Program-made: the position numbers and the translations under genes
Notes under the pieces: generated by a model
Told to the model about the DNA's origin: nothing
What the model saw: the letters and a program-made list of their open reading frames with translations, nothing else
Database searches by the model: none
Origin: Escherichia coli
Lineage (GTDB): Bacteria; Pseudomonadota; Gammaproteobacteria; Enterobacterales; Enterobacteriaceae
DNA length: 64,000 bases
NCBI RefSeq assembly: GCF_030013595.1
Contig: NZ_CP122768.1
Reading direction: 5' to 3' (one strand)
Part shown: in pieces, positions 11,124 to 53,101 of the stretch
How positions within the stretch are numbered: position 1 is the first letter of the stretch
Layout: every line of letters starts with the position of its first letter

Positions 11124-12443
11124 TTAGTTGCGTTCGTACACCAGACGACCATCAACGTAGGTGCGGTAGATCGAACGGTCATCGCCCAACGTCATCATCA
11201 CGAACAATTTGTCGACTAAAGAAACAGAGTTGTCATAGCGCAGCTGCTGTAGCGGAGTGGCGGTGGGTTCCATCACCACGAAATCAGCCTCTTTGCCAGG
11301 TAAAAAGTTGCCAATCAAATCGTCAAGGCCCAGAGATTTCGCTCCGCCGAGCGTGGCCAGGTAAAATGCTTCATATGCCGAGAGGCGATAGCCTTGTAGT
11401 TGCAACACTTTGTAGGCTTCGTTTAGCGTTTGCAGCATGTTGAAAGTTGTTCCGGCACCGATATCCGTTCCCATGCCCACTTTGACTTTCTTCTGCCATG
11501 CTTTTTTCAAGTTGAATAAGCCGCTGCCCAGGTAAAGGTTGGAGGTCGGACAGAAAGCAATGCTGGATTTGGTTTCGCTGAGACGATCCCACTCTTTTTC
11601 TTCGAGATGGACGCAGTGAGCAAAGACACAGTTTTTACCTGTCAGGCCATACTGGTGATAAACATCCAGATAGCCATCATGTTCAGGATAAAGTTCTTTC
11701 ACCCAGGCAATTTCATCTTTGTTTTCACAGAGATGGGTATGTACCCACGTATCCGGATATTCTTCTTTCAGGCGTTGCGCCATCGCCATCTGTTCAGGAG
11801 ATGAGGTAGGGGCGAAGCGTGGCGTAATCGCATACAATAGACGACCATTTTTGTGCCAGCGCTCGATCAGTTCTTTGCTTTGGTGATAGCTGCTTTCGGC
11901 AGTGTCGAGCAGATAATCCGGTGCGTTGCGGTCCATCATCACCTTACCGGCAATCATACGCATATTGATATGGCTGGCGGCTTCAAACAGCGCATCAACG
12001 GATTGCGGATGAACAGTGCCAAACACCAGCGCCGTGGTGGTTCCGTTACGTAAAAGCTGCTTGATGAAGAACGCCGACATTTCGCGGGCGTACTCTAAAT
12101 CCTCATAACGACGTTCAGTAGGGAAGGTGTGTTTATTCAACCACTCCAGCAATTGCTCACCATAGGCTCCCACCATTTCACTTTGCGGATAATGGATATG
12201 TGTATCGACAAAGCCCGGTACTATCAGTTTGCCGCGATAGTCGCGCACGCGAATGGTGTCAGGAATTTGATGTTTTCCGTCTTCCCATTCGCCAAACCAT
12301 TCCACTTTTCCCTGTTTAATGAGTAATAAACCATCCTCAATAAACCGCAGCGCAGAGGCAATCTCTTCCGGGTTGTCGACCGTACGGGTGACATCAATAA
12401 AACTGCCTCGTACCGCTTTTAACGTGTGTTCTCCTGACATCAT
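11124..12443 (-). CDS. guaD: Guanine deaminase (amidohydrolase superfamily)
   Basis: Start placed at MMSGEHTLKAVRGSF (ATG 12443-12441) behind GGAGTCA; 439 aa; HxH metal-binding motif (VDTHIHYPQ). Confidence 0.9.
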   Translation of the reverse strand: MMSGEHTLKAVRGSFIDVTRTVDNPEEIASALRFIEDGLLLIKQGKVEWFGEWEDGKHQIPDTIRVRDYRGKLIVPGFVDTHIHYPQSEMVGAYGEQLLEWLNKHTFPTERRYEDLEYAREMSAFFIKQLLRNGTTTALVFGTVHPQSVDALFEAASHINMRMIAGKVMMDRNAPDYLLDTAESSYHQSKELIERWHKNGRLLYAITPRFAPTSSPEQMAMAQRLKEEYPDTWVHTHLCENKDEIAWVKELYPEHDGYLDVYHQYGLTGKNCVFAHCVHLEEKEWDRLSETKSSIAFCPTSNLYLGSGLFNLKKAWQKKVKVGMGTDIGAGTTFNMLQTLNEAYKVLQLQGYRLSAYEAFYLATLGGAKSLGLDDLIGNFLPGKEADFVVMEPTATPLQQLRYDNSVSLVDKLFVMMTLGDDRSIYRTYVDGRLVYERN

Positions 12444-12457
12444 TGACTCCTTTACTG

Positions 12458-38969: not shown

Positions 38970-39043
38970 GCGGGCGTAGTTCAATGGTAGAACGAGAGCT
39001 TCCCAAGCTCTATACGAGGGTTCGATTCCCTTCGCCCGCTCCA
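38970..39043 (+). tRNA. glyU: tRNA-Gly, anticodon CCC
   Basis: 74 nt GCGGGCGTAGTTCAATGGTAGAACGAGAGCTTCCCAAGCTCTATACGAGGGTTCGATTCCCTTCGCCCGCTCCA; cloverleaf, T-loop GGTTCGATTCC, encoded CCA. Confidence 0.95.
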
Positions 39044-39044
39044 A
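39026..39044. repeat. attL: 19-bp direct repeat (tRNA-Gly 3' end) at the left island junction
   Basis: TTCCCTTCGCCCGCTCCAA is identical to 53083-53101. Confidence 0.85.
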
Positions 39045-39207
39045 ACAAACATTTCTCAACGTCTACTAAAGTCCATCAAACCCACGAATATCAAGCCTTC
39101 CAGCCATTTTCATAGTTTATTAACGTCTACTCACAACCACCAGAATCTACACACAGAAGTGTATAGTAATGCGTATAGGACAAAATTTATTTTTTGGAGC
39201 TATACAC

Positions 39208-40422
39208 ATGCTGCTTTCAGACCTTGCCATCAGGCGCGCGAAGCCGAAAGAAAAGGCTTATACACTCAATGACGGTAACGGGCTTTCGTTGCTCATTGAG
39301 CCGAACGGTTCGAAAGGGTGGCGACTGCGCTACAGGTTTGCAGGAAAGCCCAAAATGTTGTCGTTGGGTGTGTACCCTGATGTGTCTCTGTCTGATGCCA
39401 GGGCGGCAAGGGATGAGGCTAAAAGGCTTCTTGCTGGTGGTATAAATCCAAGTGAGGCCAGAAAAGCCCAAAAGCGAGAACAGGCGAGCAAATTTGGCAA
39501 TACTTTTGAGGGTATTGCTCGCGAATGGTACGAAAAGCGGATCGACAGGTGGTCATCGTCATACGCCGAGGAAATGATCGAGACGTTTGAAAAAGATGTT
39601 TTTCCGTACATTGGCGGTAGGCCGATCGCAGAAATTAAGCCGATGGAATTGCTGGCGGTTCTTTCCCGTCTTAATGACCGTGGTGCGACTGAAAAATTGC
39701 GTAAGGTTCGCCAGCGATGCGGCGAGGTGTTCCGGTACGCAATCATCACCGGACGCGCCGAATATAATCCAGCCCCTGACCTGGTGAGCGCATTTGCTCC
39801 ACATAAAAAAGAGCATTACGCCTATTTGAAGGCCGACGAACTGCCGGAATTTTTCCGCGTTTTTAATACGTACACCGGAAGCCAGATCGTCAAACTGGCA
39901 ATGCGGCTATTAATTCTGACAGGTGTCAGACCCGGGGAATTACGGCAGGCAGAATGGCAGGAGATCGATTTTGATAATCGTTTGTGGGAAGTGCCTAAAG
40001 AACGAATGAAGATGCGCCGTCCGCATTGTGTGCCATTACCAGAACAGGCGATAAAAATACTGGAGCAGTTAAAAAACATGACAGGCCAGTATCAGTTTAT
40101 TTTCCCCGGTCGTATTCACCACAGTAAGCCAATGAGTGAAATGGCGATGAATGTGCTCATTCGTCGTATCGGCTATGCCGGGCGCGTTACTGGTCATGGA
40201 TTCCGGCACACCATGAGCACCATTTTGCATGAGCAGGGCTATAACACCGCGTGGATAGAGACGCAGCTCGCACACGTCGATAAAAACTCAATTCGTGGCA
40301 CATACAACCATGCGCAATATCTGGATGGTCGCCGGGAGATGCTCCAGTGGTATGCCGACTATATGGATTCGCTCGAGCATGGCGGTAACGTGGTGCATGG
40401 CAAGTTCGGAAAATGTGGATGA
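39208..40422 (+). CDS. int: Tyrosine recombinase, P4-type integrase
   Basis: N-terminus MLLSDLAIRRAKPKEKAYTLNDGNGLSL...WRLRYRFAGKPK and catalytic-region residues (HGFRHT, LAH...RGTY); start after GGAGC. Confidence 0.9.
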   Translation: MLLSDLAIRRAKPKEKAYTLNDGNGLSLLIEPNGSKGWRLRYRFAGKPKMLSLGVYPDVSLSDARAARDEAKRLLAGGINPSEARKAQKREQASKFGNTFEGIAREWYEKRIDRWSSSYAEEMIETFEKDVFPYIGGRPIAEIKPMELLAVLSRLNDRGATEKLRKVRQRCGEVFRYAIITGRAEYNPAPDLVSAFAPHKKEHYAYLKADELPEFFRVFNTYTGSQIVKLAMRLLILTGVRPGELRQAEWQEIDFDNRLWEVPKERMKMRRPHCVPLPEQAIKILEQLKNMTGQYQFIFPGRIHHSKPMSEMAMNVLIRRIGYAGRVTGHGFRHTMSTILHEQGYNTAWIETQLAHVDKNSIRGTYNHAQYLDGRREMLQWYADYMDSLEHGGNVVHGKFGKCG

Positions 40423-40550
40423 CTGGTTGCGTATACAGTAGTAGACTTTGAGCGACGAAAGAAAAGGCTGTGTCTAGGGTCGCTCCCGAAAATCCGTACA
40501 CCTCGACGGACTGGTACAGCCACTACAGTAGAGGACGCTGAGGTGTGCGT

Positions 40551-41348
40551 ATGATTGATATTCATGCCGAATTAAACGAATACAAAAAAGATTTTATTTC
40601 TTTACGTGAATTTCTTGAGGTCGTGCTTAAGGTCGCTGGTGATGATTATGATGTTTCAGATGTCATAACTTGGATACTCAGGAGAATAAGCGGAGAACAT
40701 ATCCGCCTGTACACAGTAAATGAATTTAAGCTGTTGGAATCTTTTTGTAACCCGTATCGGGATGAATTTGATTATGATGTTCTTTATAGAAATCTGAATG
40801 CGGTTCGGAAACGTGGTTGTTTACCTGGTGAGAGGGATGAAAATGGTTTTCTGGTGTCCGGTTATTGGGAAGATCCCGAATTTGAGAACATTGGATTTAT
40901 AAGGGGTGAAATTTTCGCAATTTTTCCCGATGTCCTTGACGCGTTAACGAAGCTGGAAGGCGCTAACTCTTCTGAAAATGACGAGGCACAAGGACGCGAT
41001 ATTGAAAAGAAAGAGTTGCGTACAGAGGATGATTTATTATCCCAAATCGCAATGCTGGAAAAAGAAAACGCAGAGTTAAGGGCAAGGATAGAGCAGTTAG
41101 AGCAAGAGCGCCCGATACACTTATATAAATACTGGGATAAAGACCCATTAGCTAAGGCTATTGAGATTAGAAACAGAGAGTGGGCCAATTACGATCCAGA
41201 AAATGATTTTGCCACCAGGGGAAATCAAGAAGCGATAACCAGGGAGCTTAAGCAGTGGGGGGCAAGTAATGCACTTGCAACGCTCATAGAGAGGACTGCC
41301 TGCCCTATTAACCGAGACAACAGCCAAAAGAACGCAAAGCCGGATTAA
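40551..41348 (+). CDS. Hypothetical protein, AT-rich orphan cargo gene next to the integrase
   Basis: 265-aa ORF behind a GAGG Shine-Dalgarno; central coiled-coil stretch (LSQIAMLEKENAELRARIEQLEQER); visibly lower GC than int; no motif I recognise. Confidence 0.6.
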   Translation: MIDIHAELNEYKKDFISLREFLEVVLKVAGDDYDVSDVITWILRRISGEHIRLYTVNEFKLLESFCNPYRDEFDYDVLYRNLNAVRKRGCLPGERDENGFLVSGYWEDPEFENIGFIRGEIFAIFPDVLDALTKLEGANSSENDEAQGRDIEKKELRTEDDLLSQIAMLEKENAELRARIEQLEQERPIHLYKYWDKDPLAKAIEIRNREWANYDPENDFATRGNQEAITRELKQWGASNALATLIERTACPINRDNSQKNAKPD

Positions 41349-41363
41349 CGCACCATACCGCAT

Positions 41364-41507
41364 ACCCTGAGGGTGATTTACTGTTACCCTGAGGGTATTT
41401 TTTTATCTTCCCCGTCAATTTTACCATCACCCTTAGGGTAGATTTCCTCCCGATTACCATCACCCTTAGGGTTAATTTCCTTCCGGTAACCATTAGGCCT
41501 GAGGGTA
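41364..41507. repeat. Five copies of the palindromic motif CCCT(G/T)AGGGT, including a ~33-bp tandem direct repeat; putative operator upstream of alpA
   Basis: Copies at about 41364, 41386, 41428, 41461 and 41494; unit TTACCATCACCCTTAGGGT(A/T)(G/A)ATTTCCT occurs twice. Confidence 0.6.
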
Positions 41508-41575
41508 TGAAAATATTCGTTATTTCTGTGCCAGGATTACCTCGTCAAATTGAGTAGACGTTATGAGGTAAATAT

Positions 41576-41773
41576 ATGTCAAATACGCTTATTCGTTTAA
41601 CAGAAGTTCAGCGTAGAACTGGATATAGCAAGGCATGGATTTATCGCCTTATGGGGCAAGGTAAATTTCCTGCATCAGTTAAAATTGGCTCGCGAGCTAT
41701 TGCTTTCGTTGAGAGTGAAATTGACGAGTGGATTAATCAGCGTATTGCGGAATCACGCGGAACAGCTACCTGA
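41576..41773 (+). CDS. alpA: AlpA-family phage transcriptional regulator / excisionase-like
   Basis: 65 aa, MSNTLIRLTEVQRRTGYSKAWIYRLMGQGKFPASVKIGSRAIAFVESEIDEWI, the canonical AlpA HTH. Confidence 0.8.
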   Translation: MSNTLIRLTEVQRRTGYSKAWIYRLMGQGKFPASVKIGSRAIAFVESEIDEWINQRIAESRGTAT

Positions 41774-41850
41774 TTAAATGGCTACGGGGCTATTGCCCCC
41801 AGCTATCCACCAGCAAATAAAAGTAACTTAATTCGATAGCAGGAGTTTTT

Positions 41851-42651
41851 ATGAAATTTCCAAAAACGCCCGTACAGGGGCGGGGCTTCGTTCGGCCTGA
41901 AAACCAGAATCTGCAAAATTTCGGCGAAATTATCCCGGTTATTTCCGGCGTTATTGGCGGGAGTGAAACCACTATTGTTAGCGCCAGAGCGTTACATAAG
42001 GCGTTAGGTGTAGGGCGCGTTTTCCGTTCGTGGATCAAGGGGCGCATTGAAGAATACGGGTTCACGGAAGGCGTGGATTATGAGGTTGTTGAATATTTGA
42101 GCCGACCCGATCCGGTGAGCGCAAAATCTCGCCAGCAAACCGCTCTTGAGTACATCATCACAGTGAACATGGCGAAAGAACTGGCGATGGTCGAGCGCAC
42201 CGAACAGGGCCGCGCCGTTCGTCAGTACTTCATCAAATGCGAGGAGGAGCTACACAAGGTTGCGCCTGTTCGTTCCGCAGCGTTACGCCGGGAACTGAAA
42301 GCCCGTATCACCGTTGCCAGTTACTTTAAGCCGATGTGCGCCGCGCTGGAGGCGTACCGGGCTGAACTGGGTAAAAACACGTTCCAGCACCACTACACCA
42401 CGGAAGCCAATATGCTGGCGCGTATCGTGCTGGGTGGCATGACTGCAAAACAGTGGGCGCAGGCGAACGGCATCACAGGCGAACCACGCGACCACATGAG
42501 CACGTTGCAGCTTGAGCACCTTTCTTACCTTGAGCAGAGCAATATCACGCTGATTGAGTTAGGCCAGGACTACCACCAGCGGAAAGCTGAATTAATTCGT
42601 CTTTCGCAGCGTTGGTTAGCCCGTCGCATGGAGGAAAACAGCCATGTGTAA
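41851..42651 (+). CDS. Phage antirepressor-like protein (AntA N-terminal / KilAC-like C-terminal)
   Basis: ARALHKALGVGRVFRSWIKGRIEEYGFTEGVDY and MAKELAMVERTEQGRAVRQYFIKCEE resemble Ant-type antirepressor domains; AGGAG Shine-Dalgarno. Confidence 0.65.
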   Translation: MKFPKTPVQGRGFVRPENQNLQNFGEIIPVISGVIGGSETTIVSARALHKALGVGRVFRSWIKGRIEEYGFTEGVDYEVVEYLSRPDPVSAKSRQQTALEYIITVNMAKELAMVERTEQGRAVRQYFIKCEEELHKVAPVRSAALRRELKARITVASYFKPMCAALEAYRAELGKNTFQHHYTTEANMLARIVLGGMTAKQWAQANGITGEPRDHMSTLQLEHLSYLEQSNITLIELGQDYHQRKAELIRLSQRWLARRMEENSHV

Positions 42652-43278
42652 CGCTCTGACCGTTACAAAAAGAGAAAGCGCCCCGTTGCCGGAGCGCCTT
42701 TGTGAACGAATAGCCTACTGCGCCATATTGCTTACTGTCTACGAGGCAGATTATAGCGTTGTGGTCGCACAGAGTGAAGGCGCTGATCACCGTTACTACA
42801 GCACGCCAGAAATGCAGAATATTTTGCTGCAAAATGCCGTTGGTCACGCCGTCCGGAAAGCAAAAAATTTTGCTGGTGGCGCGACTGATGCGATTTTGTC
42901 AGGTCGCCAGGTGCTGATCAATCTGATGTCTGATTTCGTTCTGGATAAAACAAAGGCGACCGCAGAGAGCCGCCAGTGGAAAAGCTACATACTTGAACGC
43001 ATCACCAACAATGCCACATTTGCGGCTGGTGGGCAATGTGATCAGTCAGATTTGGTTCGTTCCAAGGTTTGCAACGAGAGCTTTTTCCTGTGCTCTTTAA
43101 GGAATTTCTCAAGAGCAAACGAACAAGGTGCGAATCTTTCTGATTCATGTTCATGCGCTATATTTTTGCGTCGTTTCTTACGAGTTGGTGATGGTGTTTT
43201 GGTTGATTCTGTGTCGCTCATGGTGCTGTCCTGTAAAGCAATGCGCCTGCGTTCCTCAAACTATGGCGCTGATAGTGG

Positions 43279-43584
43279 CTATTCCTGCTCTTTGACCTTG
43301 CGTCGCTGGAGTTCTTCACGCGCGACGGTGACGAGTTGCCCGATCTCCTCGGCTGCTTTGACTCCGATTTTTTCCACCTGCGCCAGTGCATCGAGCGAAG
43401 AAACCAGGGGATTTTCTCCTCTTCCTTCTGCCTGGCGCCGGGCGATCTCCCCGCGCATGGCGGTTACTATGAATCCGGCGTTGCTTTCGCCGTCCAGTTT
43501 TACGGATTCCATGCCTTCAATAACATCATGCGGGATCCGAGCTGTCAGTGATTGTGATTTTGCGTTTTTTGAACCTGTAGCCAT
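43279..43584 (-). CDS. Putative small DNA-binding repressor (ribbon-helix-helix-like), divergent from the replication operon
   Basis: 101 aa from the ATG at 43584 behind GAGAGGA (track ORF extends to a TTG at 43599); faces a palindrome-containing intergenic region. Confidence 0.5.
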   Translation of the reverse strand: MATGSKNAKSQSLTARIPHDVIEGMESVKLDGESNAGFIVTAMRGEIARRQAEGRGENPLVSSLDALAQVEKIGVKAAEEIGQLVTVAREELQRRKVKEQE

Positions 43585-43780
43585 CTGTAATCCTCTCAAT
43601 GAAAGTGTAAGACAATATACACATAAAAAGTCTTACATAAAAGCATTGACATGTAAGCCACCCACAAATAAAGTTACTTACACCTTGTTAATGCAAGGTG
43701 CAGAAACGACGAAACCCGGCAGTGCGCGAACACTAACCGGGCTTCTAACCACCAACGATAGAGAGCTTATCGAGGTAGCT

Positions 43781-43984
43781 ATGTTAAATCATACCACACA
43801 CCCGCAAGGGCGGGACTCGCACAACCTGAATAAATACATCTGGCGTTTTATCGCCCTGAGTACGGCACAACCGCGCGTAATTCACATCGAGGCCACCAGC
43901 GAACAGGAAGCGCGTCAGCAATCTCCTGATGGCTGCGTGATGGTATTCGCTGCCCGTATTCGCCAGGAGGTGCACCATGCATAA
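43781..43984 (+). CDS. Hypothetical small protein (67 aa), first gene of the rightward operon
   Basis: ATG behind GAGGTAG; stop overlaps the start of the next gene; it is the C-terminal segment of track ORF 42644..43984. Confidence 0.4.
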   Translation: MLNHTTHPQGRDSHNLNKYIWRFIALSTAQPRVIHIEATSEQEARQQSPDGCVMVFAARIRQEVHHA

Positions 43985-44342
43985 CCTGTCAATTTCTGAC
44001 CTTAACAGCATTCAGTTTGACGAGAAATTTACCGGGCAGCTACTGGTCCATGTGGAGAACGGGCGCATAGTGCGTAATTACAACCTGCCGGATGGTGCAA
44101 TTGCCGGAAGCGTTGAAGCATTGCTGGAACTGGCAGAACGTGCGCGACTGATTAAGCCGTTAACGAGCCATCACGATGATGATCTGCATTTTACCGGACG
44201 CATGGTGAGTCACTACGAAAACGGTGTCGAGGTATCCCGCGAACGTCTGCGTGATGATTGCTGTTTCGGCACACTGCCGGAATTTATCGAATTGCTGACC
44301 GATTGCGGTTATCAGGTAATTCAGAGCAAGACGCAGGAGTAA
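43977..44342 (+). CDS. Hypothetical protein (121 aa)
   Basis: ORF coupled to the upstream and downstream genes; no recognisable motif. Confidence 0.5.
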   Translation: MHNLSISDLNSIQFDEKFTGQLLVHVENGRIVRNYNLPDGAIAGSVEALLELAERARLIKPLTSHHDDDLHFTGRMVSHYENGVEVSRERLRDDCCFGTLPEFIELLTDCGYQVIQSKTQE

Positions 44343-44348
44343 AAAACC

Positions 44349-44639
44349 ATGAAAAAGAAAAATTCTGGCTTTACTGCCAGCGGCCCCGCTCGGCCTGAAA
44401 TCAGACACGGCGATATTTACCGCGACACCAGACGCGGGGGACGAGTGGTTATTCGTCACGTTACGCCAGGCAATATCACCTACCGCCGCGAGGCTTACGA
44501 ATATGACTGCGTAATGCCGCGCCGTCAGTTTGAGCGTGATTTTATTCTGGTGGAAAACAAACAACAGGCGGTGGCGAGACGTGCAGCCACGAATATTAAA
44601 AAAATCCGGGCAATGTTGGTTGCGGGAGGTAAGAAGTGA
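44349..44639 (+). CDS. Hypothetical protein (96 aa)
   Basis: AGGAG Shine-Dalgarno; stop overlaps the GTG start of the primase gene. Confidence 0.5.
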   Translation: MKKKNSGFTASGPARPEIRHGDIYRDTRRGGRVVIRHVTPGNITYRREAYEYDCVMPRRQFERDFILVENKQQAVARRAATNIKKIRAMLVAGGKK

Positions 44640-46384
44640 AAAACGCACCGAATTTGAAATATCAGCCGAAGGATAAATTCACTGAGGTTATCATTTTTGC
44701 CGGGACGGATGCTTACGCCCATGCCCAACACTGGATTGAAAGCGAAGGACGAAAACATGGCGATAACGTGCCACCCGTTTATCTGGGGCCAAAGCAACTG
44801 GCAGACCTGGCGAATATCCGCATTGTCGACGATGAACGCCGCTTTGCGCGTGTTTATATCGCGGGGGAGATAGAGCCAATCCAGATCAACGCTATCGCTG
44901 AAAAACTGGCGCTGGCTGGCGTACAGGAGGCGAAATTATACAAAGGCATCACCGACCGGGAGCCGGAGAACTGGCGCGATTACCTGCAACGGTTACGCGA
45001 ACAGGCTGAGCGCGGAGAAATTCTGTCAGGAAGGACCGAGAAAAAACACAAAATATCTCTTTCCAGAATGGCGGACAGCCAAAGGGCAAAACTTTTAGCT
45101 GAACGATTTCAGGATGTAGCAATGAATCAGGAGAGTGAGGTTGTCCACGTCTGGCGCGATGATTTTTGGGTTCCGGTAAGCACACTGGATCTTAGTCGTG
45201 AAATGGTGGCTATTTACGAAGAAAACGGAACAGCGTTTAGCCGGAGAGCAATAAGCAATGCAGTGGATGCTTTAAAAGTTATGGCCAGGCCAATGGGGGA
45301 GCCGTCAGGTGATTTATTGCCGTTCGCTAATGGCGTGTTTGACCTGAAAACTGGCGAATTTTCCCCGCACTCGCTGGATAACTGGATCACCACGCATAAC
45401 GGCATTGAGTACACGCCACCAGCACCAGGGGAGAACATCCGCGACAACGCGCCAAACTTTCATAAATGGCTTGATCACGCTGCAGGAAAAGACCCGCGAA
45501 AGATGATGCGTATATGCGCTGCGCTGTACATGATTATGGCTAACCGGTACGACTGGCAAATGTTTATTGAGGCCACAGGAGACGGCGGGAGCGGCAAGAG
45601 CACATTTACGCACATAGCCACCCTTCTGGCAGGGAAACAGAACACGGTAAGCGCCGAAATGACATCGCTTGATGATGCTGGCGGGCGTGCACAGGTTGTC
45701 GGAAGTCGTCTTATTGTCCTGACAGACCAGCCGAAATATACAGGCGAAGGATCGGGAATCAAGAAAATAACTGGCGGCGACCCCGTGGAAATTAACCCGA
45801 AATATGAGAAGCGTTTCACAGCAATTATCAGGGCTGTCGTGCTGGCAACAAACAACGTGCCGATGATATTCACCGAACGGGCCGGAGGCGTTGCACGTCG
45901 ACGTGTAATTTTTCAGTTCGATAATATTGTAAGGGAGGCCGAAAAGGATAAAGAATTACCGCAAAAGATAGCGGCAGAAATACCTGTCATTATTCGTCGA
46001 CTGCTTACTAACTTTTCAGATCCAGAAAAAGCACGAGAATTATTGCTTGATCAGCGTGACGGTGCCGAAGCTCTGAAAATAAAACAGGAAACTGATCCTG
46101 TCATTGGGTTATGTGCGGCGCTTGCATTTCTTGACGAACCGCATGGAATGATGATGGGAGGCGGTAAGAGAACAGTTGACCTTAACCCACGTACAAGTCT
46201 GTACAGGCTTTATCTTGCCTTTATGGAGTACATAGGCAAAGAAGAAAAATTAAGTGTTAATGATTTTGGTAAGGCCATGAAGGCGGCTGCAAGAGAATAT
46301 GGAGCTGAATATCTGACCAGAGGTTTTAAAGGACGAACACAAACTAACGTTATAAGAACGGAGAGAACCGAGGAATTTTTATAA
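44636..46384 (+). CDS. Phage/plasmid primase-helicase (P4-alpha / PICI Pri-Rep type, SF3 P-loop)
   Basis: Walker A GDGGSGKST and Walker B-like LIVLTDQP; GTG start behind GGAGG; iterons immediately downstream. Confidence 0.85.
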   Translation: MKNAPNLKYQPKDKFTEVIIFAGTDAYAHAQHWIESEGRKHGDNVPPVYLGPKQLADLANIRIVDDERRFARVYIAGEIEPIQINAIAEKLALAGVQEAKLYKGITDREPENWRDYLQRLREQAERGEILSGRTEKKHKISLSRMADSQRAKLLAERFQDVAMNQESEVVHVWRDDFWVPVSTLDLSREMVAIYEENGTAFSRRAISNAVDALKVMARPMGEPSGDLLPFANGVFDLKTGEFSPHSLDNWITTHNGIEYTPPAPGENIRDNAPNFHKWLDHAAGKDPRKMMRICAALYMIMANRYDWQMFIEATGDGGSGKSTFTHIATLLAGKQNTVSAEMTSLDDAGGRAQVVGSRLIVLTDQPKYTGEGSGIKKITGGDPVEINPKYEKRFTAIIRAVVLATNNVPMIFTERAGGVARRRVIFQFDNIVREAEKDKELPQKIAAEIPVIIRRLLTNFSDPEKARELLLDQRDGAEALKIKQETDPVIGLCAALAFLDEPHGMMMGGGKRTVDLNPRTSLYRLYLAFMEYIGKEEKLSVNDFGKAMKAAAREYGAEYLTRGFKGRTQTNVIRTERTEEFL

Positions 46385-46401
46385 GAGTAATGCCTGCAAC
46401 A

Positions 46402-46691
46402 GGTAGACGGGTAGATATTGGGTAGATGCTAGTTTTATGGATGCCTACCCGCTGAATCCCTTGCGCCACAAGGGATTCAGCGAAATAGGTAGATAGGGTA
46501 GACAATATCTCGCTTAAAAACTTTTTTACGCAGCGAAAGGAAAATACAGGTTAGAGAATGGAGAGTTAAAAGAAAGTCACTTTTACTATCTACCCTATCT
46601 ACCTAATAGATAAAAGTTGTTTTTTATCATTGTGTTAAGTGGGTAGATAACCGTTTCTTTGTTGTCTACCTGTTATCTACCTTGTCTACCC
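46402..46691. repeat. Putative replication origin: at least 11 copies of the iteron GGGTAGA(T/C) in both orientations, an 11-bp-arm hairpin and an AT-rich stretch
   Basis: Iterons at 46402, 46409, 46420, 46488, 46496, 46588, 46597, 46641, 46664, 46675 and 46684; inverted repeat CTGAATCCCTT/AAGGGATTCAG at 46452-46480. Confidence 0.7.
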
Positions 46692-46760
46692 ATAAGATGA
46701 AAGTACCGGATACGCCGTGAAGGTGCAGGCAGTGAAGCCCTGGTTATCGCATGTACCAAG

Positions 46761-47108
46761 ATGAAGGATGCGGAGGAACTGAAAGAAATGGCTTGCGATT
46801 TGCGCGAGGTTGAGCTTTTCAAGGATGAAGGCGGGGAGTTAATCACGTCGTTGGTGCTGGAGGATAAGCCCCGCCCACCCGTTGAACTGGAGCGCATCGA
46901 GTACGCTGCTAACAAGACAGAGAATCACGACGCGCTATGGGGCTGTATCCGTTCACGCACACAGCGCGGCGATAAATGCACTATCCCGTTGTTGCGCGAT
47001 GACATGAAAAAGCTGGGGTATGAGATGAAACACTTCCGGCGCTGGCTGTACAAGCTGGAAAGCGACGGCGTAATCGCTATTGACGGTGATTATGTGCGCC
47101 CACTGTAA
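46761..47108 (+). CDS. Hypothetical protein (115 aa)
   Basis: ORF only; sits between the origin and the GTGAGGA array. Confidence 0.4.
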   Translation: MKDAEELKEMACDLREVELFKDEGGELITSLVLEDKPRPPVELERIEYAANKTENHDALWGCIRSRTQRGDKCTIPLLRDDMKKLGYEMKHFRRWLYKLESDGVIAIDGDYVRPL

Positions 47109-47495
47109 AAAGTGAGGAGCAAAAGTGAGGATGGCGGGTAATTTAACAAAAAATCAACGCCACTCCTCACTTTCTCACCTGTATATAGGTCAAAAAGTGA
47201 GGAGTTAAAAACACATTGCAAAACAACAGATTACAACAATAAAGAAAACGACTGAGGAGCAGAACAAGAATAATAAAAAGTGAGGAACAAAAGTGAGGAA
47301 TGGTGAGTTAATAGAAATGAGGTAATAAAAATAACAGGTAGGTTAAAAAACACACCATGCAAGATATTAACTAAAACTTAACTATTTACCTCACTTTTGC
47401 GTATATATAAGGATTAAAAAGTGAGTACTTAAAAATACATTTAAAATCATATTGTTATTAACTTCATAAATTTTCACTGTGCAGCAGGTGAGGAA
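47107..47495. repeat. AT-rich non-coding array of at least 8 copies of AAAGTGAGGA (both orientations)
   Basis: Copies at about 47107, 47121, 47161 (inverted), 47193, 47276, 47289, 47388 (inverted), 47417 and 47487; no ORF of 60 aa or more. Confidence 0.6.
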
Positions 47496-47574
47496 TTAAA
47501 AAATCAGGAATGTTAAAAATGAAAACAGAATGTTGTGTCAGTGCCGTTGGGCAACGTAGCAACCAGTAAAAACG

Positions 47575-48117
47575 ATGGGGCAAAGCATGACTAAGCTGAC
47601 CATTAACAGAAAACCGAAAGGCATTTACGGCACGCCGCAGAAAACGACGCAGGCGGCGCAGGAGCAGGATAAAACCACATCGGCGCATAAAGTGATGCCC
47701 GGTAACCAGAAAGCGCAGCAGAAGCCCACAGGGGCGACACCGTGGCGGCATATGACCAAACGCCAGCGCAAAAACCGCAGGCGCGTTAACCGCCTCACTG
47801 AGTTGTGGCCTGAATTATTCAGCCGGGAAGCACCGAAGCCGCTTAAGGTGGGGATATTCGACGACCTGATGCAGGATCTCGCCGTCAGGGGGCTGGCATT
47901 CGGTCCAGGGGCATTGCGTGCGACGCTGGCATCTTATGCGCAGTGTCCGCGCTATTACCGCGCCTTAATGGCTGGTGGGGTACGCTACGACCTGAAAGGC
48001 CAGCCGTGCGGCGAGGTGACACCACAGGAACAACAGGACGCCGAAACGCGGCTGGTGGCGCTGAATGAGAAGCGCAAACGTCAGCGCCGGGCAGCAAAGG
48101 AGAAAACAGGCGCATGA
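47575..48117 (+). CDS. ProQ/FinO-domain RNA-binding protein
   Basis: LTELWPELFSREAPKPLKVGIFDDLMQDL...RATLASYAQCPRYYRALMAGGVRYDLKGQPCGEV parallels the recalled ProQ N-terminal domain (RFPHCF...RPLKIGIFQDL...RVDLDGNPCGE). Confidence 0.7.
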   Translation: MGQSMTKLTINRKPKGIYGTPQKTTQAAQEQDKTTSAHKVMPGNQKAQQKPTGATPWRHMTKRQRKNRRRVNRLTELWPELFSREAPKPLKVGIFDDLMQDLAVRGLAFGPGALRATLASYAQCPRYYRALMAGGVRYDLKGQPCGEVTPQEQQDAETRLVALNEKRKRQRRAAKEKTGA

Positions 48118-48401
48118 TTCACGACAGCAAAGCGGAAGCACTGGAAGCGCGTGGTCTGTACCGGAGAGCGGCGGCGCGGTGGGCTGAGGTCATCATGCTG
48201 GCGAATGATGACAAGGCACGGGAACAGGCGGCAAAACGTCGCGCGGAATGTATCCGCAAGGCAGCACGCCCACCAGCAAGGCAGGATAATTTCGGGGAAA
48301 TGCGCGAAACCATCAGCCGGGCACATGCCGGGATGGGATTACATCAGCCCAATGGTAAGGCATTCAGGAAATACCCTGGATCGAAAAATTGCAGTCAGTG
48401 A
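48114..48401 (+). CDS. PerC-family transcriptional regulator (copy 1)
   Basis: MIHDSKAEALEARGLYRRAAARWAEVIM...RRAECIRKA matches the PerC/Pch family signature as I recall it; ATGA overlap with the ProQ/FinO gene. Confidence 0.7.
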   Translation: MIHDSKAEALEARGLYRRAAARWAEVIMLANDDKAREQAAKRRAECIRKAARPPARQDNFGEMRETISRAHAGMGLHQPNGKAFRKYPGSKNCSQ

Positions 48402-48405
48402 CAGA

Positions 48406-48430
48406 AGCCGGGATTTTTCCCGGCTTTTTT
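48406..48430 (+). terminator. Rho-independent terminator after the PerC-like gene
   Basis: AGCCGGG-attttt-CCCGGCT followed by a T6 run. Confidence 0.75.
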
Positions 48431-48442
48431 GTGCCAGTAAAA

Positions 48443-48477
48443 AGCCCGCAGCCAGAAGTGTTGCGGGCTTTGTTTTT
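48443..48477 (+). terminator. Second tandem rho-independent terminator
   Basis: AGCCCGCA...TGCGGGCT followed by TTGTTTTT. Confidence 0.65.
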
Positions 48478-48596
48478 CAGGTGATTGAAGTCAATGGGAA
48501 GAACGCGATCATCATGCGTTATCGCTTCATAAATTGCAACGATGTAGATCGTTATTTCAGTTTGTGCAATCATAATCATTGTTTTGTTCAGGAGAT

Positions 48597-48776
48597 ATGA
48601 CTATGAGAAAAGCCAGCGTGAAACCCGTTTTACTCGCTCGTGATCAGATTGAAGCATTACAGCGCATCCAGGACGAGGAACGCCGCAATTCTCCGCTGGG
48701 GATTGCTCCGAGCATTCATGAGGTCGCCCGGCGTTTAATGCAGCGGGCGCTTTATCCCGTAGAACGTCCGGCCTGA
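48597..48776 (+). CDS. Hypothetical small protein (59 aa)
   Basis: ATG behind CAGGAG; MTMRKASVKPVLLARDQIEALQRIQDEE... Confidence 0.4.
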   Translation: MTMRKASVKPVLLARDQIEALQRIQDEERRNSPLGIAPSIHEVARRLMQRALYPVERPA

Positions 48777-48815
48777 TGGTCGTGATTTTTTGGTGAAAAA
48801 AGAGAGGTGGTAAAA

Positions 48816-49400
48816 ATGCCAGCAAGCAAAGAAGATTTGCGATTAAAACTGATGGAGGTGGTTAACGCTCTGTCAGAGTCGCAGGGCAGCACTCCGCAGG
48901 AGATTATCGAAATTCTGAATGCGATCCCCGCACAGGATTTCACAAAAGCGGACGAGGATGACGCGAATAAAAACATCGTCGCGTCAGTCGAAGATGAATC
49001 CTCACTGGCAGAAGCCCAGGCTAAAGCGGATTCCGCATACAGCAATATGGGCCGTCGCGCTCCAGCCCCGTTTGCTGGTGAAAAGTCGATGGATTACCGC
49101 AAGCGTGCATTAATTGGTGCACAGAAGCTGGCTAAAAAATTCAGTGATGTGGATATTCGTTCCGTTTCAGATTCTGCAACGCTGGCGGTGCTGGAAGATC
49201 AGATTTACCAGGCTGCAAAAGACAGTGTTCAGTGGGCTGTGGAAAATACGCCGGGCTATTTGCGTAAAACCGTAAGAATGGATGAAGCCGGACGGCGGAT
49301 TACTGAATATCAGGGGGATCCGAATAACTGGCTTAGTGCTTTCAAAATCCCTCCCCGTCGCCTGGTTAAAATTAACGTTGCAAGCCTCGCGGGGGCATGA
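48816..49400 (+). CDS. Hypothetical protein (194 aa)
   Basis: ATG behind GAGGTGG; acidic, with predicted helical regions; no recognisable motif. Confidence 0.5.
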   Translation: MPASKEDLRLKLMEVVNALSESQGSTPQEIIEILNAIPAQDFTKADEDDANKNIVASVEDESSLAEAQAKADSAYSNMGRRAPAPFAGEKSMDYRKRALIGAQKLAKKFSDVDIRSVSDSATLAVLEDQIYQAAKDSVQWAVENTPGYLRKTVRMDEAGRRITEYQGDPNNWLSAFKIPPRRLVKINVASLAGA

Positions 49401-49464
49401 AAAACGTGCTGATTTCAGCCCTGCCGGATTTGGTGGGGCTTATTGCTTATAACCGGGGGACATT

Positions 49465-50118
49465 ATGCTTTTAACAGAAATTGAGGCGGCAAAGCAGATT
49501 CGGGACGGTCAGCTACCGTCGCCTTATCAGTTTTCCAACATGTGGCTGATTAACCTGCGTATCACAGGAACCGGAATGGCCTATCGCGCCGAAGAAAAAG
49601 AATTTGTCTGGCGTTCACCGCAAACTTATCTCAATCCGCAGTTCCTGGAACGTTGCGCCGGAGTACCCGTCATTATCGACCATCCCGAAAGCAAAACCCT
49701 TGAAGACGTGGGCGAACGGTCGCGCATTATTGGCACCGTTATGTTGCCGTATATTCGCGGTGACGAGGTGTGGGGCGTATGCCGGATTTACGGGCAGGAA
49801 ATCATCGATTACATCCAGAAAGCACGGGGGGAGGTATCCACCAGCCCGTCGGTTGTGTTTTGTGGTGCGTCCGGTGGGGCAGAAGTTCCTGATGTAATGG
49901 GCGAGGACAATTTTTTCATTGAGGGTACGCCATTTCTTATCGATCACGTTGCGCTCGTACCGTTGGGCGTATGGGATAAGGGCGGGAAACCATCAGGTGT
50001 GGAAGTAACAACGCCGACAGAAGAAGAACAGCTCGCCGGAATGGTCCGTGAAGTTATTGATGCGGCCTGCAAGCCAGCCCTGGAAAAACTGGAAGAAATA
50101 TCCGGGCGCTGGCTATGA
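49465..50118 (+). CDS. Hypothetical protein (217 aa)
   Basis: ORF behind a GGGGGA Shine-Dalgarno; no recognisable motif. Confidence 0.5.
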   Translation: MLLTEIEAAKQIRDGQLPSPYQFSNMWLINLRITGTGMAYRAEEKEFVWRSPQTYLNPQFLERCAGVPVIIDHPESKTLEDVGERSRIIGTVMLPYIRGDEVWGVCRIYGQEIIDYIQKARGEVSTSPSVVFCGASGGAEVPDVMGEDNFFIEGTPFLIDHVALVPLGVWDKGGKPSGVEVTTPTEEEQLAGMVREVIDAACKPALEKLEEISGRWL

Positions 50119-50288
50119 ATCGTGGGATTGTCCCTGCAGCAGGAAACAATGATCAGAACGTTAAGTTGGAAATTGTTCGGAACGCTGGTGCCGATTACTT
50201 CGCGCAACTAATTGGTGCTCAACGGTTCCTGGGATGATTTAAATACACGCGCTTTCCGGCGCATTAATACAGTCTGAGGGGAAGTGTC

Positions 50289-50813
50289 ATGTTTATGAGC
50301 AAGGCAGAATATGCCAAACACAAAGGCGTAAGCCGCCAGACAGTTTACGACTGGATCGAGAAAGGCGAAGTGGTCATGTCCGGTAAAAAAATCGATGTGG
50401 AAGCGACAGAGCAGCGGAACAGCCCACCAGCACAGGGAAAAGATACCGTTTCTGAAATGTGGCCAGAGAGAACGCTGGAAATGACGTGGGGCGAGTTCTG
50501 GAAAGCAGTTAAGGCCAGAGACGGTAAAATCCCTGCACCAGTAACGGACGATGACATACAGCAGCGTGTGCAGGATGCAGCCGGGGAACTATGCTGTGAA
50601 GTGCAATTTCTTGATGATGGTGCTATCTGCCTTGAGGATTATGCTGGGCAATATTACTTTGAGCAGTATGATTTTCGGGAAAATGCCAGGCTGGCAATTC
50701 GTATGCTGCGTTGTGAGCTCTGCTATGTTGCAGGTGATTGTCCCGATGAGCTGGATAACTGGAGTGAAGCCGGACTAAACGCCCTGGCTGAGTGGGAAAA
50801 ATCATCCCATTAA
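50289..50813 (+). CDS. HTH-domain protein (small-terminase / Rpp-like N-terminus)
   Basis: N-terminus SKAEYAKHKGVSRQTVYDWIEKGEV is a typical HTH as seen in phage small terminase subunits; followed by a repeat array. Confidence 0.5.
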   Translation: MFMSKAEYAKHKGVSRQTVYDWIEKGEVVMSGKKIDVEATEQRNSPPAQGKDTVSEMWPERTLEMTWGEFWKAVKARDGKIPAPVTDDDIQQRVQDAAGELCCEVQFLDDGAICLEDYAGQYYFEQYDFRENARLAIRMLRCELCYVAGDCPDELDNWSEAGLNALAEWEKSSH

Positions 50814-50826
50814 TGACCGTAAAATT

Positions 50827-51110
50827 CGCGAAAAGTGTCAAGTCAGGCCGTCTGCCGGGTTGACACTTTACACTCTGAACGCGAAAAAGTGTCAACCTCG
50901 CTGTAAGCCCCGCCATTACTGGCCTTTCGCCAGATTTACCACGTCAAAAAGCCGAAAAAATCGCGAAAAGTGTCAAGTTGCCATGCTTAGAAATGCTAAG
51001 GTTTGATAAGGTTTTTCGCGAAAAAGTGTCAAGTGTGTCAACCTGCGATGTTAAGATTTGTTAAGGTCTTAAGCCGGAAAGTGTCAACCAGCCCCTAAGA
51101 TTTCCTAAGG
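50827..51110. repeat. Array of at least 6 copies of CGCGAAAAGTGTCAA plus three TAAG(A/G)TTT doublets
   Basis: Copies at about 50827, 50861 (inverted), 50880, 50960, 51016 and 51078; non-coding. Confidence 0.6.
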
Positions 51111-51118
51111 TGTAAATC

Positions 51119-51409
51119 ATGACCATCACCGAAGCCGATATGCTGGAGATGATCCGCAGCATTGCCGGAATCAGACCACCAGCAGGCAAACAGGAGGCCA
51201 CGCAGCCGGACAGCGTTATCGCTGAGAACTATGCGCGTGTGGTGGCTGAGGTGATGCGCCGTGACGGTATTGAGCTTAACGGAGTGGATATGCGCGACAT
51301 ACGCACCAGGGTACTCGAGTTATTGGCCTACCGTCGCCGCGTGCAGATGTACCGGGAGAGCGAGAAAAAGACTTACCAGTGGAAGAAGCCGGAGCGGTTA
51401 CGGCGGTAA
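51119..51409 (+). CDS. Hypothetical protein (96 aa)
   Basis: ORF behind an AAGGTG Shine-Dalgarno. Confidence 0.45.
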   Translation: MTITEADMLEMIRSIAGIRPPAGKQEATQPDSVIAENYARVVAEVMRRDGIELNGVDMRDIRTRVLELLAYRRRVQMYRESEKKTYQWKKPERLRR

Positions 51410-51459
51410 CCAGTTGATAAAAAGGCTCCTCAATTTTGAGGAGGGTAGCTGGTGGCTGG

Positions 51460-51481
51460 CAGAATGTAAATTTACATTCTG
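51460..51481. terminator. Perfect 22-bp palindrome between convergent genes (bidirectional terminator or protein site)
   Basis: CAGAATGTAAATTTACATTCTG, preceded by a second hairpin CTCCTCA-attt-TGAGGAG at 51426-51443. Confidence 0.5.
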
Positions 51482-51511
51482 GTGATTTAATCATCTGATT
51501 TACCCGATGGC

Positions 51512-51802
51512 TTACCTTACCAGGCCATAGCGGATTACCGTGCAATGCGCACCATCGCCACCAATACGCACATCAAAACGTGGCTCACGGACTTTCACAC
51601 GCTCCAGCAACTTATCACGAACCATAGCGTTTAGCGTCCTTCGTGTTGCCTCTATGTGATATCGCTGATATTCGGAACCATAGAGCAGCACTGTAACACC
51701 ACGAACATCAAAAGGTGGATCTCCAGCCTCCACCCGCACCCAATCGCGATACTCAGGTTTGTAGAGTTCAAGGATCTGTTTTTTGTGCCTGGTCATTCTC
51801 AT
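51512..51802 (-). CDS. Hypothetical protein (96 aa)
   Basis: Minus-strand ORF with a protein-like composition; palindromic operator upstream. Confidence 0.45.
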   Translation of the reverse strand: MRMTRHKKQILELYKPEYRDWVRVEAGDPPFDVRGVTVLLYGSEYQRYHIEATRRTLNAMVRDKLLERVKVREPRFDVRIGGDGAHCTVIRYGLVR

Positions 51803-51916
51803 GCGTGCAACTCCTTATTGTGGGACAGTACTGTCATACAATAAGCTATACGGAAAATTATCAAAAGAACAGAAACCAACCATTCAGATTTAACAGGTAT
51901 CAATGGGATTATGCTT

Positions 51917-52219
51917 ATGGTGCATGATGACAAAGCGGAAGAACTGGAAGCGAAAGGCTTATGGCGACGGGCGGCTAATCGCTGGGGTGAGTTACTGAAA
52001 CAGGCGGCAAGTGATGAAGCGCGTCAGTATGTAACGGAACGACGAACGGCATGCATCCGGAAGGCAACCATAACCCGGGAACCGGAAAGAGACCTGATTT
52101 GTGCCATAAGAACCGCCGCCACAAAAACACTAACGGATATGGGGATCGACCTGAAAAAAGAAGATCCACTGCGGGGCATTCAGCACGGACATACAAAGCA
52201 GGATAAACGCAGGAAGTAA
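51917..52219 (+). CDS. PerC-family transcriptional regulator (copy 2)
   Basis: MVHDDKAEELEAKGLWRRAANRWGELL...RRTACIRKA parallels copy 1 at 48114 (clear paralogue); alternative ATG at 51911. Confidence 0.7.
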   Translation: MVHDDKAEELEAKGLWRRAANRWGELLKQAASDEARQYVTERRTACIRKATITREPERDLICAIRTAATKTLTDMGIDLKKEDPLRGIQHGHTKQDKRRK

Positions 52220-53082
52220 ATTTTTTCGTGTAACCAGGCAACCGACTATCTGAAAGATAGTCACACCCTACCGGGATCACGCTAGTAACGCACAACAGAG
52301 TGACCCATAGCCACCCTGTTTAACCGTTCCGGCTGGCTGGGCAGATTTTGCGCGGGTCTTATAGTCCCTCACAACAGAGTAAATAAAATTGACTTGGTTA
52401 CAGAGTAACCAAACCGGAGATTCCCGGTTTGCTCAAAAAATGACAATGAGTTACGCCCCTAACCTAAGTAATCCTTACATTCACTGCATCATCACCATGA
52501 TGGTGACGCAGCCCACCAGCAACCATAACGATTTCCGTTACAGTTGATGTGCTTTTTTGCTGGTAAGGCGTAACCCGTTGATTGTTCCAGAATCCACCAT
52601 CGGTGGAAGTTGAAAAACTCACCCGCCAGATTCTGAATGGTGAAAATCACCGGGGATCTGAATAGGCATTTCCTCTATGGAGGTCGCACCGTTTTCGGGA
52701 GAAGGTGCGATCATGTTCGTCATACCTGTTCCGTTGAAACGGAATACCCCATTCCGGCGTAGCTGGTGGACGCACAGCCACATACGAAAAATTGCATTCA
52801 GGAGGGGGGATCGAAATCCCTACCCCCCATTGCTTATGGGACCGCCCGCCCCGTCAAATTTTTACACCCGCGAAATTAAAAAAATGCGTCGCGCTGGTGG
52901 GCCTGATGCCGATATGGGGATTCCCATAACGGGTTATCCATGATCATCCACCAGCTTGATAACGGATAACAGGGGATGCGAAATCCTCAAGCGAGTGATA
53001 AACGTGTATAGAAATGTGTATAGAATCTATTTTAGAACTCGAGAATGTGCCTTTATTACTGGTCTTGTTGCTTGTTGTATTG

Positions 53083-53101
53083 TTCCCTTCGCCCGCTCCA
53101 A
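53083..53101. repeat. attR: 19-bp direct repeat of the tRNA-Gly 3' end at the right island junction
   Basis: TTCCCTTCGCCCGCTCCAA is identical to 39026-39044. Confidence 0.85.

Follow-up and report, generated by a model that had tools for sequence, protein, structure and literature searches.

Two adjacent open reading frames (ORFs), ORF1 and ORF2, lie at positions 48816-50118 of a 64,000-nt stretch of Escherichia coli DNA (RefSeq assembly GCF_030013595.1, contig NZ_CP122768.1; hereafter the window), within a phage satellite island that, judged by its genes, is a Gram-negative phage-inducible chromosomal island (PICI). The initial annotation had taken them for an orphan module of unknown function; instead, both proved to be clear homologues of one protease-scaffold fusion protein of helper phages, and sequence comparison solidly identifies them as the satellite's diverged copies of the two halves of that protein. 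It had also been held that clear homology to capsid or scaffold proteins would make the module ordinary satellite morphogenesis rather than new function. With such homology found, the pair is to be read as satellite morphogenesis or interference and not as a new function, although its split form is still unusual. We think that the pair probably constitutes a head-assembly ('late zone') module, derived from one helper gene, that would re-program or sabotage procapsid assembly of the helper.

48816-49400, + strand: ORF1, 194 aa; ATG at 48816, stop at 49398-49400; Shine-Dalgarno sequence GAGAGGTGG 5 nt upstream
49465-50118, + strand: ORF2, 217 aa; ATG at 49465, stop at 50116-50118; GGGGGA 4 nt upstream

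The coordinates, strand and protein lengths reported initially, as well as a purine-rich Shine-Dalgarno sequence in front of each ORF, were confirmed. As identical RefSeq coding sequences exist in other E. coli, matches to hidden Markov models (HMMs) are strong and the ratios of non-synonymous to synonymous substitution rates (dN/dS, see below) agree, we consider ORF1 and ORF2 to be real genes and not chance ORFs.

One phage gene as the likely source of both ORFs

HMM searches placed the two ORFs on one and the same profile, phrog_6216: ORF2 at profile positions 115-315 (E 2e-79) and ORF1 at positions 405-544 (E 8e-47). Each ORF covers a part of this 545-position profile and neither is a full-length member; together they span both of its conserved blocks, without overlap and in reversed gene order. 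In tblastn searches ORF1 and ORF2 each matched the same 14 phage records (with a Shewanella phage counted under two record names), among them Escherichia phage Rac-SA53, an Actinobacillus phage, Klebsiella phages Chronis, RothC and RothD, Pantoea phage PdC23 and five Yersinia YenM phages. Where the record carried gene annotation, both matches fell within a single annotated gene, in which the ORF2-like part precedes the ORF1-like part.

The gene order in Rac-SA53 and PdC23 is terL, portal, MuF-like head morphogenesis gene, the protease-scaffold gene, phrog_6268 and major capsid gene; the interval from portal and MuF genes to decoration and major capsid genes is the slot where tailed phages keep the prohead protease and scaffold. 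The phage protein consists of an optional NUDIX domain, DUF2213, a helix, an Ala/Glu/Lys-rich linker of 90-150 residues and a conserved C-terminal domain (C-domain) of ∼130 aa, a single-gene form that Rac-SA53, PdC23 and Chronis exemplify. An internal Met codon with a Shine-Dalgarno-like motif (GGTGA/GAGG) is conserved where the post-protease helix begins in the three phage genes checked (in Rac-SA53 at 7550-7570), which suggests that a nested, separately translated scaffold product could be made from the phage genes. Protease-scaffold fusions or nested genes of like architecture are known as lambda C/Nu3, Mu I/Z and P2 gpO, with nesting of protease and scaffold in C/Nu3 and I/Z.

In a metagenomic phage (L009) a NUDIX-DUF2213 gene is followed by a gene for a 314-aa charged coiled-coil protein with the same C-domain at its end (hhalign probability 99.2%). 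The gene is thus split naturally in this phage and the C-terminal part is, therefore, a separable, scaffold-like unit. Pbunaviruses show the same synteny, PB1 gp22 being followed by a structural gene in the decoration position and by the major head gene; PB1 gp22 matches DUF2213 with E 5.5e-29 and is annotated as head maturation protease. For its homologue Pa193 gp24, binding to the inside of the capsid at five-fold vertices was observed and a role as scaffolding protein was proposed (PMC11456595). The annotation and synteny of PB1 gp22, along with the capsid location of Pa193 gp24, thus characterize DUF2213 proteins as protease-scaffold fusions. The parent phage gene of ORF1 and ORF2 has the same order of parts as these Pbunavirus genes (protease, linker, putatively capsid-interacting C-terminal part) and the same neighbours (decoration and major capsid protein genes).

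ORF2 has a predicted prohead-protease fold

No recognizable motif had been noted in either ORF; yet ORF2 matches Pfam family PF09979 (DUF2213, renamed Pa193_gp24), the family of Pa193 gp24 and PB1 gp22, at residues 39-168 with 28.2 bits (E 2.2e-6), above the curated gathering threshold of 22 bits. ORF1 has no PF09979 match. ORF2 also weakly matches a 'head maturation protease' PHROG.

The AlphaFold2 model of ORF2, built from a 28-sequence alignment (mean pLDDT 82), matched T4 gp21 and herpesvirus assemblins in fold comparison. In the model residues ∼20-175 form the assemblin/T4 gp21 prohead-protease fold and residues 186-216 a C-terminal helix; a capsid-targeting C-domain is missing. We conclude that ORF2, as modelled, has the fold of a prohead protease and may be proteolytically active. 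Residues His73 (in the motif 'DHP'), Ser125 and Ser127 ('STSP'), Glu153 and Asp160 are invariant in 28 satellite and phage sequences, while His161 is present in at least 90% of them. The spacing from His73 of 'DHP' to Ser127 of 'STSP' is 54 in ORF2, next to 55 from His85 of 'NHP' to the 'SS' pair (Ser139/140) in T4 gp21, where we take His85 and Ser140 to be the catalytic residues.

ORF2 differs from T4 gp21, HK97 gp4 and herpesvirus assemblin in having no significant sequence or profile similarity to them (T4 gp21 being the one compared by profile). It also differs in being encoded by a satellite and in lacking the part by which such proteases are directed into the procapsid.

ORF1 joins a scaffold-like C-domain to an N-domain of its own

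Residues 60-187 of ORF1 are 64.8% identical to the C-terminus of the Rac-SA53 protein (tblastn), and residues ∼62-194 align with the phage C-domain (alignment A2). The AlphaFold2 model of ORF1 is mostly helical (pLDDT 77.5), and fold searches with it returned generic helical matches only. Residues 1-60 comprise two short helices and an acidic, disordered linker modelled at low confidence; this N-domain is conserved among satellite forms only, and its profile recovered its own family alone from 1.84 billion representative proteins. The weaker matches to this profile (DUF1601-repeat and others) were dismissed as unrelated proteins.

Satellites are known to use scaffold mimics. Our reading, by analogy with Pa193 gp24, is that ORF1 is such a mimic and would bind the helper capsid protein. 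In Staphylococcus aureus pathogenicity islands (SaPIs) CpmB is reportedly a small helical protein that is homologous to the helper scaffold at its C-terminal end and vies with it for one site on the capsid protein, so that small capsids are formed. ORF1 resembles CpmB of SaPI1 and SaPIbov1 (which acts with CpmA) in that it keeps the scaffold-side C-domain of the helper (∼64% identity) on a much shorter body, and its C-terminal end is likewise expected to contact the capsid. The two differ in several respects: their sequences are not detectably related (searching PDB sequences with ORF1 gave no match), what ORF1 retains is a domain of 130 aa and not a short helix, and its partner is a protease gene, a type of gene absent from SaPIs; redirection of capsid size is established for CpmB, whereas for ORF1 we infer it.

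Neither ORF matched NCBIfam, and PDB sequence searches with ORF1 and ORF2, as single sequences or profiles, gave no relevant match; the NUDIX structures returned by the PDB search with the A1 profile were matched solely through the phage rows of that alignment. In NCBI and UniRef most homologues of ORF1 bear the name 'NUDIX hydrolase', and 'TolA' is given to some homologues of ORF2; the corresponding domains are absent from both proteins. These labels seem to stem from fused phage proteins, in which a NUDIX domain is added and a charged linker is present. An identity as NUDIX hydrolase was rejected, as ORF1 and ORF2 have no PF00293 match and, in PdC23 gp04, both aligned regions are C-terminal to the NUDIX domain.

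Split and reversed gene order

The satellite pair differs from phage protease-scaffold genes in that its parts are encoded by two genes, ordered the opposite way to the phage gene, that it lacks the long charged linker and that the N-domain of ORF1 is new; the island that carries it has neither a capsid nor a portal nor a large terminase gene. ORF2 keeps the post-protease helix (z 5.7 against Rac-SA53). An origin by tandem duplication with reciprocal loss, in which the N-terminus of ORF1 would correspond to the post-protease helix, was not supported: pairwise similarity at the expected position was weak (z ∼1.6-2.4) and the profile-profile comparison was not significant (E 0.16-0.21).

In the literature we met with no account of a satellite in which one helper gene has become a split and order-reversed protease/scaffold pair, no report linking DUF2213 or 'Nudix' to PICIs, and no description of Rac-SA53-type phages as PICI helpers. 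A Burkholderia report of an 'essential DUF2213' concerns a different gene (BCAM1066) and has no bearing on ORF2.

Layout of the module

Four further features define the module around ORF1 and ORF2:

48405-48431 and 48441-48471, + strand: two intrinsic-terminator-like hairpins with T-runs, 3′ of the PerC gene (direct reading of the sequence; the second also found by scan)
48603-48776, + strand: 57-aa ORF upstream of ORF1 (annotated as WP_001224090.1 in relatives)
49417-49440, + strand: GC-rich intercistronic hairpin, then TTATT, in the ORF1/ORF2 spacer (scan, fold and alignment)
50289-50813, + strand: 174-aa helix-turn-helix (HTH) protein, 3′ neighbour within the module (phrog_57 TerS, E 4.8e-7, residues 1-42)

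The location of the pair between the PerC terminators and the HTH protein, as given in the initial annotation, was borne out, with the addition of the conserved 57-aa ORF, which had been missed. This ORF has no Pfam or PHROG match; it looks like a ribbon-helix-helix-like regulator, the pattern being judged by eye, and is found in the equivalent position in E. coli, Pantoea and Klebsiella islands.

The intercistronic hairpin folds with -16.9 kcal/mol (z -0.18), i.e. its energy is not exceptional; in alignment with the Pantoea island the hairpin is kept in an otherwise diverged spacer. It could serve as an attenuator, setting the scaffold-to-protease ratio, or as an RNA-stability element.

The 174-aa protein has an N-terminal HTH weakly like the N-termini of small terminases, with a match to Pfam HTH_17 below threshold, and has no similarity to TerS-like proteins of the helper or of Pantoea. 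It was considered as Rpp; with no PDB sequence match it is not Rpp-like. Relatives in Pantoea and Klebsiella have two clear TerS-like genes in its place (113 and 275 aa in Pantoea). ORF2 of the window ends in EEISGRWL, while most relatives end in EEISGRLAQLEKEG or TE (223 aa), and sequence similarity stops just 3′ of the ORF2 end (50100-50118). Judged from the sequence, this 3′ end looks like a recombination junction.

Conservation of the pair

We observed the ORF1-ORF2 pair across Escherichia, Citrobacter, Salmonella (including Typhi), Enterobacter, Klebsiella and Pantoea. Comparison of gene content across related islands showed the pair in an unchanged place in E. coli islands, which occupy two attachment sites, and in islands of Pantoea agglomerans, Klebsiella aerogenes and Enterobacter hormaechei, in the order 57-aa ORF (where present), ORF1, ORF2, and HTH or TerS-like gene. 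Variable genes were seen after ORF2 or before ORF1, never between them.

Values of dN/dS were 0.06-0.13 for ORF2. For ORF1 they were 0.15-0.5 within E. coli (with only 5-8 substitutions per pair) and ∼0.19 in comparison with Pantoea, where the C-domain of ORF1 had ∼0.13. We regard the pair, on this comparative evidence, as a maintained, functional module under purifying selection.

In neighbour-joining trees made for each half, nearly all short satellite forms made up one clade beside the clade of Rac-SA53-type phages; one basal short form per tree (P0027 and P0143) branched nearer to the phage clade. The position of the satellite clade in both trees thus indicates an old capture from that phage lineage.

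Some related islands (L006, 10707-12010; L011, 6030-9319) carry further helper-like late genes beside the pair: genes for a baseplate-hub-like protein (phrog_196, 342-345 aa), its 88-aa partner and a 633-aa tape-measure/transglycosylase-like protein. The first of these islands has SieB near its end. In an Enterobacter island the gene upstream of ORF1 (342 aa), considered as a captured major capsid protein (MCP) gene, turned out to be baseplate-hub-like instead.

Association with Rac-SA53-type phages

Among 5426 complete E. coli genomes, 33 carry the module and 78 carry a full-length Rac-SA53-type gene. Both were present in at least 18 of the 33 module genomes (a lower bound, as megablast detection of the Rac-type gene misses diverged helpers), with 0.47 expected (hypergeometric p 7e-26, a value inflated by clonal relatedness of strains). 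In five genomes, STEC005, RM9088 and ETEC1732 among them, the module and the Rac-type gene are 37-44 kb apart, with the island at abgR/smrA beside the Rac attachment site.

In Pantoea agglomerans (L007, 1-12450) the island lies directly upstream of the portal gene of a Rac-SA53-type prophage, with a head module that encodes portal (478 aa), MuF-like (276 aa), DUF2213 (438 aa), a 208-aa protein and MCP (342 aa). A short ORF remnant at 12090-12448, between the island and the portal gene, is probably the 3′ end of terL. The satellite copies in Pantoea have 63% (C-domain) and 55% (protease) identity to the resident helper gene, close to the E. coli values. A helper-embedded configuration is known for other PICIs (PMC10111431), and the Pantoea island matches it.

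We propose Rac-SA53-type myophages as the predicted helper family. The island is ∼30% of the helper genome size (44-52 kb), a proportion compatible with small capsids and not diagnostic of them.

Proposed role and alternatives

Diverged head genes of helpers are known from the 'late zone' of Gram-negative PICIs (PMC6092414, PMC10111431). If the pair of the window is a module of this kind, as we believe it probably is, its action could be as follows. The helper protein would probably enter procapsids via its C-terminal part, bringing the protease along. On induction of the helper, ORF1 would compete with the helper protease-scaffold protein for the inner surface of the helper capsid protein; with the C-terminal part on a body ∼180-300 residues shorter, it would alter the procapsid core, and the most likely outcome would be small capsids of satellite size, as with SaPI CpmB. 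ORF2, recruited perhaps through its C-terminal helix, would act in trans as the maturation protease of particles from which the tethered helper protease is excluded. The scaffold-first gene order and the conserved hairpin would fit a high scaffold-to-protease ratio, which is a speculative point because the folding energy of the hairpin is not unusual.

In its fullest form the proposal is a two-component capsid-hijacking device: a short scaffold mimic building satellite-sized procapsids, together with a free-standing, satellite-encoded protease that is possibly paired, helix to helix, with the N-domain of ORF1. We consider this form possible, if on the doubtful side.

Several points weigh against the proposal that the pair acts on procapsid assembly. 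The ORF1-ORF2 family is known from genes and predicted models. The C-domain of ORF1 was compared with the C-terminal part of PB1 gp22, the Pbunavirus protein whose homologue Pa193 gp24 was imaged in contact with the capsid, and no homology was found outside the protease region; because of this the capsid-binding role of ORF1 is argued from architecture. The hhalign comparison of the DUF2213 block with T4 gp21 was not significant, and for this reason the catalytic residues of ORF2, assigned by motif and spacing, are putative. No Rac-type gene was detectable by megablast in 15 of the 33 module-bearing genomes, and it is the clonal relatedness of enterotoxigenic (ETEC) and Shiga toxin-producing (STEC) E. 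coli strains that inflates the co-occurrence statistic.

A further point comes from island EcCICFT073, which is of the same type and carries, also 3′ of the primase and PerC genes, c1499 (capsid) and c1500 (head decoration), which have likewise diverged from head genes of the helper and correspond to the helper family. It differs in having a lambda-like helper and copies of MCP and decoration genes, whereas the window island has a Rac-SA53-type myophage as predicted helper and copies of protease and scaffold C-domain. In the equivalent place to our pair, c1499 and c1500 had no detectable role in interference, deletion of either gene did not relieve interference with lambda, and EcCICFT073 was packaged in full-size capsids (PMC6092414). 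PICI capsid genes were also reported to be dispensable for transfer (PMC10111431).

The same evidence from homology, fold and helper association fits pure interference as well. ORF1 would then be a dominant-negative scaffold fragment capping the helper capsid protein, and ORF2 an untargeted protease cutting head proteins early; helper yield would fall, and concatemers of the island would be packaged in normal-sized heads. The E. coli PICIs studied to date do interfere without making small capsids, and ORF2 lacks the C-domain that would confine the protease to procapsids. However, blocked capsid assembly would rob the satellite of capsids too, and the long co-retention of both halves, with a strongly constrained protease, fits a constructive role at least equally. 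We consider pure interference rather unlikely.

Another alternative is that the captured helper late genes are low-effect spare or compatibility parts, by-products of recombination between the late regions of PICI and helper, like c1499 and c1500. Late zones of Gram-negative PICIs often hold captured late genes that are dispensable for transfer (PMC10111431, PMC6092414), and the relatives described above carry baseplate-hub-like and tape-measure/transglycosylase-like genes beside the pair. Such parts would, however, be hard to reconcile with the age and remodelling of the pair: its 55-65% identity to helper genes, in E. coli and in Pantoea, does not indicate a recent capture, the satellite forms make their own clade over at least five genera with an architecture that includes a family-specific N-domain, and under purifying selection the genes have been kept where neutral remnants would have decayed. 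This makes the spare-parts explanation improbable to us.

Satellites often carry defence genes in this region, and the initial annotation had named defence among the kinds of satellite cargo expected at this position; the setting in a phage satellite island and the presence of morphogenesis-type genes were confirmed, while for defence there was no significant PADLOC match. That the pair serves anti-phage defence or another accessory function outside virion assembly, as the NUDIX hydrolase label on many ORF1 homologues at NCBI might imply, is hardly credible, given that the best PADLOC E was 0.03 for ORF1 (JetA, spurious) with no match for ORF2, that neither ORF has a NUDIX Pfam domain and the optional phage NUDIX aligns to neither, and that the pair belongs to the fixed backbone of the islands rather than to a variable slot.

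The island in the window

The boundaries and the remaining characterized genes of the island are:

38970-39043, + strand: tRNA-Gly(CCC) (ARAGORN)
39026-39043: attL, the last 18 nt of tRNA-Gly(CCC), TTCCCTTCGCCCGCTCCA (exact repeat search)
39169-40422, + strand: tyrosine integrase of the island (Pfam Arm-DNA-bind_3, Phage_int_M, Phage_integrase)
41851-42651: AntA/B antirepressor-like gene (Pfam AntA)
44349-44639: DUF4222 gene, 5′ of the primase gene (Pfam DUF4222)
44636-46384, + strand: D5-type primase/replication protein (Pfam D5_N, DUF5906, Pox_D5)
47575-48117, + strand: ProQ/FinO-domain protein (Pfam ProQ, E 8e-24)
48114-48401, + strand: PerC-family regulator (Pfam PerC, E 2e-32)
53083-53100, + strand: attR, identical to the 3′ end of tRNA-Gly (exact repeat search)

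The 18-bp direct repeat has two exact matches in the window, with none expected by chance, and the two attachment (att) repeats thus delimit an island of ∼14.06 kb (39044-53100), which adjoins the ETT2 type III secretion locus. The features that we used to recognize a PICI were integrase, AlpA-type regulator, primase/replication gene, unidirectional genes, length of ∼10-20 kb, att repeats and absence of capsid, portal, tail and lysis genes. With its integrase, D5 primase, PerC and att repeats 14.06 kb apart, and with no capsid, portal, tail or lysis gene found in it, we classify the element, known here from its genes, as a Gram-negative PICI. A capsid-forming PICI (cf-PICI), which has its own major capsid, portal, protease, head-tail adaptor and terminase genes, was ruled out, the head genes of the island being a protease domain and a scaffold-like C-domain only. 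A PICI of the helper-embedded type (HE-PICI), residing inside a late gene of a helper prophage, was ruled out as well for the window island, which sits at tRNA-Gly.

The ProQ/FinO and PerC genes (47575-48401) make up the end of the upstream transcription unit; the ProQ/FinO-domain protein is RNA-chaperone-like. While this PerC gene lies before the module, a second PerC-family gene was seen near attR (51911-52219), and the ∼860 bp from there to attR (52220-53080) hold short ORFs only. Annotated RefSeq relatives of the island have a small HTH regulator, AntA/B, an Icd-like protein and YlcI/YnfO. At 42644-43984 the window has a 446-aa ORF with a repressor-like match (phrog_6196) confined to its last 90 residues; at the equivalent place relatives have small individual genes, of which the Icd-like one is on the + strand and YlcI/YnfO is on the other. 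The 446-aa ORF may be spurious or a fusion.

Significance

How Gram-negative PICIs handle the capsids of their helpers is largely obscure: the only well-studied mechanism of E. coli PICIs is that of Rpp, which acts on terminase, and the helper-like head genes of many PICIs await roles. The ORF1-ORF2 module offers a concrete candidate pair of capsid-assembly effectors. If the capsid-hijacking scheme is true, E. coli-type PICIs would gain in it their first capsid-size determinant, and the island would be the first satellite without a capsid gene of its own to bring its own prohead protease. The identification also corrects a widespread misannotation as 'NUDIX hydrolase', and DUF2213 gains a function, predicted from the modelled fold, as a prohead protease. 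The Rac-SA53-type myophages that we predict as helpers include toxin-carrying prophages of ETEC and STEC and a prophage beside the Rac site.

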